From Acidobacteriota bacterium (GTDB lineage: Bacteria > Acidobacteriota > UBA6911 > RPQK01 > JAJDTT01): a stretch of 64,000 bases of DNA. Location: the NCBI GenBank assembly GCA_965263035.1, contig OZ253580.1, forward strand, positions 3,296,001 through 3,360,000. Direction: 5' to 3'. Within the stretch, counting starts at the first letter, position 1. Every line of letters starts with the position of its first letter. Made by a program: the position numbers and the translations under genes. Under the pieces are notes generated by a model. It did not search any database and was not told where the DNA came from. It saw only the letters and a list, made by a program, of their open reading frames with translations. Positions 26,902 through 57,690 of this stretch are shown piece after piece.

Positions 26902-26909
26902 GAGCGCTG

Positions 26910-26985
26910 GGAGCGGCGGTTTTCTTACCGCCTGGAGGGGCGACTTTCTTGTCGCCCATTAGGAGCAGCGACTTTCTTGTCGCCG
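26910..26985 (+). repeat. REP-like GGAG-tagged palindrome cluster (3 tandem units)
   Basis: GGAGCGGCGGTTTTCTTACCGCC, GGAGGGGCGACTTTCTTGTCGCCC, GGAGCAGCGACTTTCTTGTCGCCG; same family as 55590-56391. Confidence 0.8.
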
Positions 26986-52602: not shown

Positions 52603-52798
52603 CGGATCATTATAGACCGGAGAGGAAAGAGGAGATTCCCTCCGGCCAGGAGCGGCAGTTTCCTAACCGCCGAACTCCGGTGGAACAATGTGGCGAGGCG
52701 GGAGCGGACGATTAAACTGCCGTCCCTGCAGTCGTCCACGCTGCCTCGGAAATTCCGCGCAAACGGCGTGGTCAATCGGGGTGCGGTAGAATTACCCC

Positions 52799-54410: not shown

Positions 54411-55583
54411 GTGATCAGGCGCCGGGAATTCCTCAGAAGGACTGCCGCGGCGGGGGTCGTGGCCATGATCGGAAGGGTGACTGCGGGAGCCGCCGGCTCC
54501 GGAAGAGGAGACCGGGGAACCGCTGTCCCCGCCCCCTTTTCCTACGAGATTCCCCACACCCGATCCACGACTCCCATCCAGAGGGCCAGAATCTACCCCA
54601 TGTCCAGTCCCTTCACCCGGACCGACACCCGAACCGGCCTGACCCGAAACGGCCACGTCTACGCGGCCGGCAGCGGCTACCTCTGGGCGTCCCGGGATCG
54701 GGGCAGGACCTGGACCATGCGGAAGCTCCCGGTGGGAACCGGCGGCGGATTCGGAATCCTGAACGACGACGTCTTCATCCTGATCCATGACGCGCCGGAT
54801 CATTCGGTGACCTACGTTCAGCGCTCCACGGACTACGGTGAAACCTGGAGCGAGCCCTTTCCTCTGGACGTGAGCCCCTACACCTTCAGCGGCTCCGGTT
54901 GGAGCGACGTCTACCAGCACCCGGACGGTACCGCCATGATCACCGTGACGCTCCGCTCCCGGGACGGGGTCGACGAATGGGACAATCCTCAGGTTCGCGG
55001 TTTCCACGACCACATCTTTCGCTCCCGGGACGGGGGCCGGAACTGGGGAGACCGGACCCTGATTCTGCCCTATTCGGCCGAGACCACCCTGATGGCGGTG
55101 AAGGACTCGAACCGGATGTTGGCCTATATCCGAGCCCAGAGACCCATGCTGAAGGAGGATCCGGCCGACTTCCGGGAGCGGACCGGGGCCACCCCCACCG
55201 AGGAGTGGGTTCTCAAGAACGGGGTCATCGCCGAGTCCGTCGACGGCGGCCGGAACTGGGTGAACCCCAGGTTGTTCGACCTTCGGGGCAGCGTCCCGGG
55301 CGAGTTCGTCCAGGTTCCCGACGGAAGGGTCGCCGCCATCTGGTTGCAGCGCTACCCCTACGAGCTGGCCGAGATCCGGGCCCGCATCAGCTCCGACGGA
55401 GGACGGTCCTGGGGCCCGACGACTTACTCGCTCATGCACGGGCACGGCTACCCGGACAGCGTGGTCTATCCCGACGGATCCATCGTGACCGTCTGCGAAA
55501 ACACGGACTTGAACCACCGGGGCCGGGTGCTGGGAAGCCGAACCATGGCGGCGCTCCACTGGCGGCTCCCGGACCAGGAATAG
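54411..55583 (+). CDS. Tat-exported BNR/Asp-box (sialidase-family) beta-propeller protein
   Basis: RRREFL; Asp boxes SRDRGRTW, STDYGETW, SRDGGRNW, SVDGGRNW, SSDGGRSW. Confidence 0.85.
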   Translation: MIRRREFLRRTAAAGVVAMIGRVTAGAAGSGRGDRGTAVPAPFSYEIPHTRSTTPIQRARIYPMSSPFTRTDTRTGLTRNGHVYAAGSGYLWASRDRGRTWTMRKLPVGTGGGFGILNDDVFILIHDAPDHSVTYVQRSTDYGETWSEPFPLDVSPYTFSGSGWSDVYQHPDGTAMITVTLRSRDGVDEWDNPQVRGFHDHIFRSRDGGRNWGDRTLILPYSAETTLMAVKDSNRMLAYIRAQRPMLKEDPADFRERTGATPTEEWVLKNGVIAESVDGGRNWVNPRLFDLRGSVPGEFVQVPDGRVAAIWLQRYPYELAEIRARISSDGGRSWGPTTYSLMHGHGYPDSVVYPDGSIVTVCENTDLNHRGRVLGSRTMAALHWRLPDQE

Positions 55584-55589
55584 CCGCAT

Positions 55590-56391
55590 GGAGGGGCGAC
55601 TTCCAGTCGCCCAACAGGAGCGGCGGCTGTGCGCCAGGCTAACTGGCACAAGATAGGCGGTGAAAGTCCGCTGAAACGAAAGGACTAACCATCCACGTTT
55701 CTCCGCGAGCCGTGCGTGGGCGTCCGTGAGGGCGTCGGCGAAGCGTCGGTAGCGGTGCGTATGGGCAGGCTATTGAGCATCGAAAGCTCCTTGATCGGAA
55801 GTGCCGAGGCTGTAGTCGCGGTCGAAGGCAACACTGGCTGGACCGCCAAGGTGAGGGACGGCCGGGCTCCGCGGTGTCAAAGAACCCATGCACGTACGTA
55901 CATCTGGTGTCGGGACCTGGGAGGGCTTGGTCTCTCCCCGGCGAGAGCCGGGGCCTCGTGGGAAAGGAGAAAGCCGTAACCCATGAGGGGAAAGAGCAAG
56001 CAATCGGATACATCCATAGTAGTGATGAAGCGGGCGAACAAGGAGGGGGAACTCTCTGCGGAGTCGGTGGAGCGAAGGGGTGGAACCAAGGGGAATTCGG
56101 CTCACCAAAGTACGGACCGGACTCAGAGCCGGGCTACCGTGACACAGGCGGGGGTCGGATACGGCGGGCGTCGCGACCTGCCGTCATTACCTGAGGTAGG
56201 AGCCGTGTGCCTTAACGGGCACGCACGGATCTGCGCGGGGGGCGCTGGGCAACCGGTGTCCCTACCGCGACTTCTTGCTGCCGGGAGGGGCGACTTTCTT
56301 GTCGCCCACTGGGAGCGGCGGTTTTCTTGCCGCCGAACGGGAGGGGCGACTTTCTTGTCGCCCATTGGGAACGGCGGTTTTCTTGCCGCCG
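55590..56391 (+). repeat. Alternating REP-like palindrome array (6 units, B-A-B-A-B-A), second unit split by the intron
   Basis: B = GGAGGGGCGACTT(TCTT/CCA)GTCGCCC at 55590, 56284, 56340; A = GGA(G/A)CGGCGGTTTTCTTGCCGCCG at 55617 (split), 56312, 56368. Confidence 0.85.
55629..56271 (+). mobile_element. ORF-less group II intron (IIB-like, bacterial class E-like)
   Basis: 5' GTGCG; domain V GAGCCGTGTGCCTTAACGGGCACGCACGGATC (56200-56231, AGC triad); domain VI ending CCCTACCGCGAC; no RT ORF; removal restores an intact repeat unit. Confidence 0.92.
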
Positions 56392-56460: not shown

Positions 56461-57690
56461 ATGCACCGGTTTCACGTAATCCACTCCCTATGGGCATTGA
56501 TCCTGGGATTCGGCTGCGGTCCCTCCGGAGGCCCCGATGTCGAGCCGGCCGCTCCCGACCCCTTCACCCCCAACGGCGAAATCCGAATCACCCGGGACCA
56601 CCAGGTCATCGGAACCCTCCCCGCCGAATACATCCCCCTCGACTATCCGAACATGCCCTGGCGGGGTGACCCCGGCATCGGAATGACCCGGGACCGCGTC
56701 ATCTACGTCTCCCTCTATGCCCGGATCTTCCTCTCCCGCGACGGCGGAAAGACCTGGGAGAGCCGTTCCATCGACGTCGAGTCGCTGGATCCGCCCATGC
56801 GGGTCAAAAACTATGACTCCTTCGGCGTGCGCCGGGACGGCACCCTGCTCTGGGCCTACCGCGCCGACGATCCGCCCACCGACTTCCTGCTGCGAAGCAC
56901 CGACGGCGGCGAGTCGTGGCAGCCCTGGAGCCGGTTGGAAAACCTGTCGCCGTTCATCCGGGCGGGGGGGAACCAGAACTGCCTCCTGGAGCTTCGGGAC
57001 GGCACCCTCTTGTGGCCCACCATCATGGCCGCCCAGCATGCCTATGATCACACCGAGGACGCCTCGAAGCCGCCGCCCACCACCTACGTCTTCCGCTCCA
57101 CGGACGGAGGCAAGAGCTGGGAGGAAAAGCACGCCCTGCAGGAATGGGGGACCGAGACCAATCTGTTGGAACTGAACGACGGCCGTCTGCTGGCCGCCAT
57201 CCGTTACCAGCGCGTATTCGAAGCTCCGCCTCCGCAGAACGAACCGCCGGTTCTGATCGAGGAGCACGCCGGGCGGGAGATGCAAAAGAGCATCGTGGGA
57301 AAACGGGTCTTCCTGGCGGACTCGGCGGACGGGGGCCGGAGCTGGCAGAATTTCCGCCCCGTCTGGCGCCAGCCGGACGGACCCATGGATCTGGAGTTCG
57401 GCCAGGCCCACGGCCACATGGTTCAGCTTTCGGACGGCACGGTGGTCCTGGTGGTGGAAGACCGCTACCCCTATCCGGAGGGCGACGTCAGGGCCCGGAT
57501 CAGCCGGGACGGGGGCCAGACCTGGTTGCCCGAGGTCTACCATCTCAGCCCGGGGCACGGCTACGGCGGCAGCGTCGTCCTGGAGGACGACACCATCGTC
57601 ACCGCCTTGGGGAATACGCCGCTGGACGAGAGTGGTCGGCCGCAAGGAGACTACACGGCCCAGATCGTCCGGTGGCGGCTTCCGAAATGA
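56461..57690 (+). CDS. BNR/Asp-box (sialidase-family) lipoprotein
   Basis: AAGGAG RBS, lipobox GFGC; Asp boxes SRDGGKTW, STDGGESW, STDGGKSW, SADGGRSW, SRDGGQTW. Confidence 0.85.
   Translation: MHRFHVIHSLWALILGFGCGPSGGPDVEPAAPDPFTPNGEIRITRDHQVIGTLPAEYIPLDYPNMPWRGDPGIGMTRDRVIYVSLYARIFLSRDGGKTWESRSIDVESLDPPMRVKNYDSFGVRRDGTLLWAYRADDPPTDFLLRSTDGGESWQPWSRLENLSPFIRAGGNQNCLLELRDGTLLWPTIMAAQHAYDHTEDASKPPPTTYVFRSTDGGKSWEEKHALQEWGTETNLLELNDGRLLAAIRYQRVFEAPPPQNEPPVLIEEHAGREMQKSIVGKRVFLADSADGGRSWQNFRPVWRQPDGPMDLEFGQAHGHMVQLSDGTVVLVVEDRYPYPEGDVRARISRDGGQTWLPEVYHLSPGHGYGGSVVLEDDTIVTALGNTPLDESGRPQGDYTAQIVRWRLPK

Follow-up and report, generated by a model that had tools for sequence, protein, structure and literature searches.

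The locus

The element described here is a group II intron without an open reading frame (ORF). It lies in a 64,000-nt stretch of the genome of an Acidobacteriota bacterium (contig OZ253580.1, positions 3,296,001 to 3,360,000). We call this whole stretch the window, and plain positions are counted from its first letter. The intron (55629..56271, + strand) splits one unit of an array of short, hairpin-forming repeats that resemble repetitive extragenic palindromes (REPs). Two genes flank the array in the same orientation. The upstream gene (54411..55583, +) stops 45 nt before the intron, and the downstream gene lies at 56461..57690 (+). Both had been called BNR genes in an earlier note, made from the sequence of the window alone, and Pfam agrees: BNR_2 at 9.4e-11 and BNR at 1.9e-8 for the upstream gene, BNR_2 at 1e-14 for the downstream gene. 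At the orthologous loci of several congeners (such as L076 of G007), the upstream BNR gene seems to extend into the first REP unit, with a TAG stop within the loop (…GACTTCCTAGTCGCC…).

The array has six units in strict alternation, B-A-B-A-B-A, with a period of 28 nt. A B unit (GGAGGGGCGACT TCC AGTCGCCC; 55590..55613, +) precedes the split A unit, and four intact units follow the intron at 56284..56391 (+): B at 56284-56308, A at 56312-56335, B at 56340-56364 and A at 56368-56391. The 5ʹ half of the split unit, GGAGCGGCGGCT (55617..55628, +), is the end of the 5ʹ exon, and the 3ʹ half, TTCTTGCTGCCG (56272..56283, +), is the start of the 3ʹ exon. Joined, the halves give a 24-nt unit like the intact neighbors at 56312-56335 and 56368-56391, and this unit stands uninterrupted, as GGGAGCGGCGGCTTTCTTGCCGCCG, at the orthologous locus of two congeners (G004 and G001). 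The same REP-like family recurs in the window as an array of three units (26909..26985, +) and as a single unit at 52649. These were listed with a loose pattern scan, which gave 1762 matches, mostly false, and served only for this purpose. The earlier note had described the exact split, the alternation and the recurrence of the family, and on all three points it was right.

Structure of the intron

The intron is 643 nt long. Its junctions read GGAGCGGCGGCT / GTGCG at 55628/55629 and ...CCCTACCGCGAC / TTCTTGCTGCCG at 56271/56272. The 5ʹ end, GTGCG at 55629, fits the group II pattern GUGYG, and the 3ʹ end, ...CCGCGAC at 56271, closes with GAC, which fits AY. A covariance-model search, proposed in the earlier note as a check, recognizes the intron. 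The Rfam model RF02005 (group-II-D1D4-6) matches the core of domain I (55663..55886, +) over its full length (1-225) at 164.5 bits (gathering score 49), and RF00029, the model for domains V and VI, matches 56198-56271 with 36.9 bits (E 2.4e-5; gathering score 40). Domain V (GAGCCGTGTGCC...GGCACGCACGGATC; 56200..56233, +) has AGC at positions 2-4 (GAGCC), and domain VI (56234..56271, +) has a bulged A at 56264, 7 nt upstream of the 3ʹ splice site.

A consensus fold was derived from 32 distinct sequences of the family, with columns limited to those of the copy in the window, which we call c1. The fold has six domains. Standard pairs fill 99.4% of 6045 cells, and 22 of the 189 pairs have compensatory changes, a number that none of 500 shuffles reaches and that drops to 0-6 when partners are slid by 1-3 columns; all of these statistics were counted on the same sequences that yielded the structure. 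Two pairs of domain V (helix 33) have double compensatory changes between ORF-less and full-length copies, and three pairs of domain VI (helix 34) have compensatory changes. Among the ORF-less copies, domains V and VI are the least diverged (mean pairwise difference 0.013-0.016) and the stub in domain IV is the most diverged (0.10), as selection on catalysis, rather than on coding, would give. Judged by the covariance model and the predicted fold, c1 is a complete group II intron.

The sites that would select the target are readily located. Exon-binding site 1 (EBS1; AGTCGC, 55814..55819, +) lies in a terminal loop of domain I, and EBS2 (GCTCC) lies at 55786..55790 (+). Their partners in the 5ʹ exon are intron-binding site 1 (IBS1; GCGGCT, 55623-55628) and IBS2 (GGAGC, 55617-55621). 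A candidate EBS3 (A at 55767, +) would pair with the first base of the 3ʹ exon, T at 56272. The B unit in front of the intron and both B units behind it are unoccupied, perfect IBS2/IBS1 targets. The pairing of EBS2 with IBS2 suits a IIB-like intron. Because EBS2 is present, the insertion is inside rather than after a hairpin, and domain V has AGC, we take the intron to be IIB-like, not IIC, in agreement with the earlier note.

Of the ORF for the intron-encoded protein (IEP), domain IV retains the first ~57 codons, from the ATG at 55983 to ~56153 (+). With the IEP of a full-length relative in G002 as tblastn query, this stub corresponds to residues 1-57, at 67-73% identity in all seven copies of the genome; a Pfam search of the stub in c1 found no family. 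About 20 nt of the 3ʹ end of the ORF and domain IV also survive, at 56180-56199. The junction of the ~1274-nt internal deletion that took out the reverse transcriptase (RT)/maturase lies at 56170..56180 (+). Hence, the earlier note correctly saw a remnant of an RT gene, and its extent is not 56138-56195 but the ~57 codons at 55983-56153 plus 56180-56199.

Copies, parents and origin of the ORF-less form

The genome that holds the window (G000) is a single contig of 6.198 Mb with 62% G+C. A blastn search found seven full-length ORF-less copies in it, with 100, 100, 98.3, 97.0, 96.9, 96.9 and 90.7% identity to c1, and a scan with RF02005 found the same seven and nothing else above threshold. The copies c1 and c2 are identical over 643/643 nt, and c4, c5 and c6 are at least 99.8% identical to one another. 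In addition, 68 nt of the intron's 5ʹ end (G000:C1:4424636-4424703) stand alone behind a REP-like 5ʹ exon and break off abruptly. Fragments that share one query range (917-997 or nearly) occur in G002, G003, G006, G007 and G008.

Matches to RF02005 occur in 28 of 61 related genomes and in seven of eight congeners, a tally that includes G016, a genome on which no other result depends. Four congeners (G002, G004, G005 and G007) hold introns of 1912-1917 nt in which the IEP frame is open (506-618 aa from stop to stop). These qualify as RT-encoding parents. The earlier note had called for such a parent, and it exists in the congeners, with none found in G000. The parent IEP has only RVT_1 by Pfam, with no HNH domain found in that search, and its nearest annotated relatives, 52-58% identical, are encoded by ltrA genes of proteobacterial plasmids.

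The two forms are unevenly spread over the genus. Counting only copies with both ends recognized, G002 has eight full-length copies and G004 three, with no ORF-less copy found in either. G007 has ten full-length copies, two ORF-less copies of 643 nt and one of 755 nt, and G005 has one full-length copy and eight ORF-less copies of 640-648 nt; these two genomes thus hold both forms. In G006, no full-length copy was found, and there is one ORF-less copy of 755 nt; a second (L025) is recognized by its 3ʹ end alone. Left out of all counts are L025, L040 and L041 (G002), L045, L046 and L049 (G005) and L064 (G007), in which one end was not found, and L068 (G004) and L070 (G003), in which neither was. 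The 755-nt variant (L065:12-766 in G007, L069:1791-2545 in G006) has a palindromic insertion of ~113 nt in a terminal loop of domain I, and it likewise sits in REP loops.

Alignments to the 1917-nt parents place one and the same deletion junction in every ORF-less copy of G000, G005, G006 and G007. Furthermore, in a FastTree phylogeny of the ribozyme columns, all ORF-less copies group in a single clade, to which no full-length copy belongs. Therefore, the alignments and the tree point to a single origin of the ORF-less form, which would then have diversified within and between species. The earlier note had proposed a non-autonomous element mobilized in trans; the first part stands, with 57 codons left and a single deletion relative to the parents, and for the second part no cognate RT was found in G000.

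Choice of the target

A genome-wide blastn search, also suggested in the earlier note, puts all seven copies of G000 at the same position of a REP-like hairpin, GGAG[C/G]GGCG[A/G]CT / T(T)C...G.CGCC. The copy c7 occupies a different hairpin, GGTAGGGGTGCCC / CTTGTGGGTGCCC. This hairpin belongs to a second REP class, which is tagged GTAG and whose core has 30 matches in G000. In c7, EBS1 reads GGGTGC instead of AGTCGC and EBS2 reads CCTAC instead of GCTCC; the altered loop bases are precisely those that would pair with this exon. Such covariation extends across the genus. We scored the pairing of EBS and IBS in 39 copies with known exons from five genomes. EBS1 occurs in seven variants, each of which fits its own 5ʹ exon, with 6/6 pairs in 36 copies and 5/6 in the other three. 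EBS2 occurs in three variants (GCUCC, CCUAC and CAUGC), each again matching its own IBS2, with 5/5 pairs in 20 copies, 4/5 in 18 and 3/5 in one.

Does the intron read the hairpin or the sequence? A hairpin spans the junction in 34 of the 41 copies with both exons, and the junction always lies 0-2 nt into the loop. Three more (c3, L062 and L063) are REP units with one stem mismatch, which brings the REP family to 37 of 41. The remaining four, three in G004 plus L053 in G007, sit in non-REP sites that nonetheless match the EBS of the intron. Since EBS1 and EBS2 variants match their own exons, and non-REP sites with a matching IBS are used, these sequences together indicate that the site is recognized through pairing of the intron RNA with DNA, at the GGAG tag (IBS2) and at the 5ʹ arm plus first loop base (IBS1), and that the hairpin as a structure would not be required. 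The earlier note had named the REP loop as the landing site. Its position is confirmed; the choice appears to be made by EBS-IBS pairing and not demonstrably by the loop or hairpin structure.

These data bear directly on a mode of targeting like that of IIC introns, in which hairpin structure rather than sequence is recognized, as at terminators or attC sites. The frequency of hairpins and the constant place of the junction in the loop would suit it. However, the intron inserts within the hairpin instead of behind it, the tag and the 5ʹ arm are paired with an EBS2 of 5 nt and an EBS1 of 6 nt, and the three sites in G004 and L053 are used although they are not hairpins. Moreover, the resident intron family that does insert after hairpins (family Y, see below) falls to other domain I models, RF02001 and RF01998. 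We consider IIC-type targeting extremely improbable.

The three G004 copies in non-REP sites (L029, L066 and L067) are full-length, and they share one target (GCATGGGCATCT / A.AAGGTG), behind which an integrase-like frame follows directly. A larger mobile element, rather than homing, may account for their multiplication. More distant introns that match RF02005, in G050, G029, G049, G045 and G055, have unrelated 5ʹ exons; therefore, REP homing is a trait of the genus-level lineage. In one such relative (L020, G055:C1:156658-159882), two RF02005-type introns stand head to tail, and the 3ʹ end ...CCCTACCGCGAC of one abuts the GTGCGCC of the next.

The REP-like repeats

The 12-nt core GGAG[CG]GGCG[AG]CT occurs 192 times in G000, where base composition predicts 11.9, and the repeat is therefore abundant beyond chance. 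Five of these 192 exact cores hold an intron. Where a hairpin follows G[GT]AG in G000, its loop is most often of type TCC (157) or TTTCTT (127). REP and REPIN elements carry a GTAG (or CGTC) tag at one end, according to the part of the literature available to us (PMC3733652); the main class here is tagged GGAG, not GTAG. The arrays are direct, not alternating, and most units have GGAG as their tag; on these grounds we call the units REP-like and stop short of full REP/REPIN membership.

Some features of G000 recall REP systems. A 238-aa frame with a Y1_Tnp match (34.9-36 bits, Pfam), which is IS200-like and resembles REP-associated tyrosine transposases (RAYTs), lies at L072:1390-2106 (-), that is, G000:C1:2483529-2482813. 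Its TAG stop is immediately followed by the REP unit with c3, and no flanking pair of inverted REPs was seen around it. A second, frameshifted Y1_Tnp copy lies at G000:C1:3478063-3478464. The hairpin that hosts c2 is the first arm of a composite repeat of ~125 nt with a second, inverted hairpin, in REPIN-like fashion (L085:922-1050; G000:C1:3743921-3744049), and 13 further copies of this repeat occur in G000 at 94-98% identity.

Could the introns have been carried along with their repeats, as REP or REPIN passengers of a RAYT-like transposase or by recombination, with no retrohoming at all? The place of the Y1_Tnp frame next to c3 would fit such passive spread, as would some occupied units whose 5ʹ and 3ʹ halves do not match. 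However, the identical copies c1 and c2 stand in different stem types, A and B, with unrelated flanks, and every copy has exact intron ends. Passive transport also gives no reason why EBS1 and EBS2 should covary with the exons, or why the four copies in non-REP sites should still match the EBS. This explanation is already largely refuted, and we regard it as very improbable.

Recent insertion

The spacer between the two BNR genes has an orthologue in all eight congeners; the length of its REP array varies among them, and the intron is absent throughout. The locus of c2 lacks an intron in G007; of the seven copies, c1 and c2 were compared with orthologous sites in this way. Since none of the eight congeners has an intron at the c1 locus and a second copy is identical over 643/643 nt, c1 is, on this comparison, a recent insertion made after the lineage split from the sequenced congeners.

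A long co-oriented ORF ends 12-206 nt upstream of each of the seven copies in G000. We used the nearest co-oriented ORFs, taken as stop-to-stop frames, since the lengths of junction-spanning ORFs are uninformative in a GC-rich genome. From the same frames, the occupied REP units are seen to be extragenic. Given these upstream frames, the introns would be transcribed by read-through, and no gene would be interrupted.

The earlier note had suggested that the intron may be spliced from a transcript that links the two BNR genes. Contigs from RNA libraries touch on the same locus; all four sequencing runs consist of contigs. In X1 and X2, a strain ~99% identical in the upstream gene has 55627/8 joined to 56379/80. 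The joint drops 751 nt, not 643, and so removes the intron and four REP units together. Because of this skip, and of differences elsewhere, we attribute the joint to a strain without the intron, that is, to a difference in DNA, and not to spliced RNA. Depth over the intron is ~5-6 times that of the flanks in X1 and X2, and we make no claim of transcription because higher depth fits copy number as well as expression. Contigs of X18 match the 5ʹ junction with 0 differences, and X18 may be the source sample.

The signs of recent insertion bear on a less active picture of the family, in which the introns were mobile while a cognate parent was present, the parent was lost, and the seven copies are now immobile, possibly unspliced relics. 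Neither a cognate RT nor a full-length copy was found in G000, the sites of the copies put no selection on splicing, and the truncated 68-nt fragment exists. However, c1 and c2 are identical, as c4, c5 and c6 very nearly are, the c1 site is empty in every congener and in the ~99% strain, and domains V and VI are nearly invariant. Given the identity of c1 and c2 and the empty c1 sites, any loss of the parent would be very recent. Such stranding is a possibility that we take seriously, but we do not favor it.

Reverse transcriptases and other introns of the genome

Two other intron families with intact RTs reside in G000. Family X has RT frames of 438 and 471 aa, three intact copies and one disrupted copy, and a domain I that matches RF02003. 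One of its introns (L011, G000:C1:5840766-5844434), with a 471-aa RT frame, ends ~160 nt before the start of a 23S rRNA gene (LSU match from 2871), and another copy (5053399-5056941) is split by an insertion of ~2 kb. A weak RF02005 match at G000:C1:2513011-2513270 (-; 34.9 bits) starts with GTGCGCCGTGCAAAGG, has no RT nearby and may represent a further intron akin to family X, degenerate or ORF-less.

Family Y has an RT frame of 515 aa and a domain I that matches RF02001 and RF01998. It numbers 24 copies in G000: two of 1849 nt with the RT (L008, G000:C1 2574643-2572795; L007, 531335-529487), 19 ORF-less copies of 631-632 nt, two interrupted copies and one truncated copy. Most of them sit directly after CGGCG[G/A]CAAGAAAG[C/T]CGCCGCTC (...GCCGCCGCTC/), which is the reverse complement of the REP unit; in the other listed 5ʹ exons, too, the end is a GC-rich hairpin followed by GCTC. 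By these sequences the mode of insertion looks class C-like, and 19 of the 24 copies are in leading-strand sense. One repeat thus serves two intron families, one per strand, by two different rules. A further open frame of 1253 aa (G000:C1:1812359-1808598, -), outside any intron, has a weak RVT_1 match (30.7 bits) and may encode a defense-type reverse transcriptase.

The resident RTs raise the question of cross-mobilization, that is, whether the orphan family is spliced and moved by the RT of family Y (515 aa) or family X (438/471 aa). Intact RTs of both families are present, family Y clearly supports ORF-less derivatives of its own in G000, and the c1 family was recently active with no cognate RT found. 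As a rule, however, an IEP is specific to the intron RNA that encodes it, and the RTs of X and Y are just 33-36% identical to the parent IEP. Furthermore, blastn of the c1 intron against G000 gave no similarity to the introns of either family, domain IV included. We therefore think it improbable that either RT drives the c1 family.

Interpretation

We propose that c1 is very probably a non-autonomous, ORF-deleted derivative of a 1912-1917-nt, IIB-like intron with an endonuclease-less RT, that it homes to REP-like units by base pairing, and that its insertion here is specific to the lineage. EBS2 would pair with the GGAG(C) tag in front of the REP-like hairpin, EBS1 with six bases formed by the 5ʹ arm and the first loop base, and a probable EBS3 with the next loop base. 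The intron, as part of a ribonucleoprotein, would then reverse-splice where the loop begins on its 5ʹ side. With hundreds of copies that lie directly behind stop codons and are non-coding, the REP family would make for many harmless targets that are transcribed by read-through, from which transcripts the intron would be spliced. The ORF-less branch has been kept in several species of the genus, and it must presumably rely on an RT supplied in trans.

The direction of replication fits this scheme. Endonuclease-less introns insert in the lagging-strand template at the replication fork. Leading-strand sense, as seen here, would correspond to insertion into that template. The cumulative GC skew of G000 is lowest at 2,873,575, with dnaA at 2,872,067; relative to both, all seven copies are in leading-strand sense. 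The listed copies of G002 (10), G005 (12), G007 (14) and G004 (4) all switch strand at dnaA, in two blocks. A replication strand bias of endonuclease-less introns has also been described, in the portion of the literature that we could consult (PMC8919778).

Several results weigh against our proposal. The strand bias of G000 is not significant alone because the empty targets themselves are 68-72% in the same orientation (128/187, or 68%, and 112/156, or 72%), so that 7/7 gives p ~0.07-0.08, and the strand blocks in G002, G005, G007 and G004 were judged without termini or REP backgrounds. The RF00029 score lies below the gathering score of that model. The candidate EBS3 forms a Watson-Crick pair with the first 3ʹ-exon base in 29 of 39 copies, a G-U pair in six and no pair in four. 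For splicing, the 751-nt joint of X1 and X2 is not the one expected, and no exact 643-nt spliced joint was found in the four contig runs. The upstream ORFs are stop-to-stop frames, with a Pfam check made only beside c1 and c3. No cognate RT or full-length parent was found in G000, where all seven RF02005 copies are ORF-less; the best RTs of the genome, at 33-36% identity to the parent IEP, include none with a strong RF02005 domain I. The assembly is a single contig at 97% completeness, and a plasmid that carries the parent could therefore be missing. Trans-mobilization in G000 would lack a driver among the RTs found there, and its copies may now be stranded.

Relation to known systems

Much of this behavior is known already in other settings: ORF-less introns that are moved in trans, EBS retargeting, hiding in non-coding hairpins, and REPs as targets of insertion sequences. 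The ORF-less TeI3-type introns of Thermosynechococcus elongatus are reportedly mobilized by TeI4-type IEPs, in work by Mohr, Ghanem and Lambowitz (2010). The likeness is close: ORF-deleted, IIB-type introns proliferate in a genome, rely on an RT in trans and diversify their EBS. In contrast to the TeI3-type introns, the c1 family has its targets in a single family of REP-like hairpins, several species share its deletion derivative, and no cognate RT was found in G000.

RmInt1 of Sinorhizobium meliloti is a bacterial class D intron, IIB-like and endonuclease-less, that homes into an insertion sequence. It shares with the c1 family an IEP without an endonuclease domain, a target defined by EBS1, EBS2 and EBS3, and an orientation related to the replication fork; its ORF-deleted forms can be complemented in trans, a further likeness. 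The c1 family differs in that its target is a REP and not an insertion sequence, and it is assigned only as IIB-like, with plasmid ltrA proteins as the nearest IEPs.

Class C (IIC) introns insert after intrinsic terminators or attC hairpins, as reported in the part of a later paper that we could consult (Robart et al. 2007, via PMC7306698). Like them, the c1 family occupies non-coding hairpins behind genes in many copies and appears biased to one replication strand. Unlike them, it possesses an EBS2, uses the hairpin's 5ʹ arm for pairing and inserts in the loop; IIC introns recognize the stem-loop by its structure and insert behind it. It is family Y of G000 that acts as IIC introns do, on the other strand of the same REP.

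REPs have been recorded as targets before. The insertion sequences ISPpu9, ISPpu10, IS1397 and ISPa11 target them, and a group II intron of Pseudomonas putida KT2440 is REP-associated in two of nine copies, by the excerpts of one survey available to us (Tobes and Pareja 2006, PMC1525189). For the insertion sequences, as for the c1 family, REPs are a multicopy, neutral landing site, but those elements are DNA transposons. As far as those excerpts go, the 2/9 of P. putida KT2440 compares with 37/41 copies in the present genus, at one fixed position. No description of a IIB-like lineage that homes into REP loops was found in the literature as accessible to us; the supplementary tables of surveys might list such sites.

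Significance

A bolder picture is conceivable, in which the IIB-like lineage is a specialized parasite of REPs and REPINs. EBS1 would follow the stem variants of at least two REP classes, the gene-less branch would persist across species as a third-tier parasite that is still mobile without a cognate RT, and a class C-like family would use the opposite strand. We hold this picture to be unlikely as a whole. If the gene-less branch is mobile without a cognate RT, a heterologous RT would have to mobilize it across classes, or its targets would be hairpins that extrude on the lagging-strand template.

Known hiding places of group II introns are mobile elements and positions behind terminators; the edge of a REP loop would be a third, renewable refuge. 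The seven EBS1 and three EBS2 variants matched to REP variants are a natural data set on intron retargeting. An orphan ORF-less family with signs of recent insertion, for which no cognate RT was found, makes the specificity between intron and RT testable in vivo. REP-homing introns thereby link two kinds of selfish DNA that are usually studied separately.

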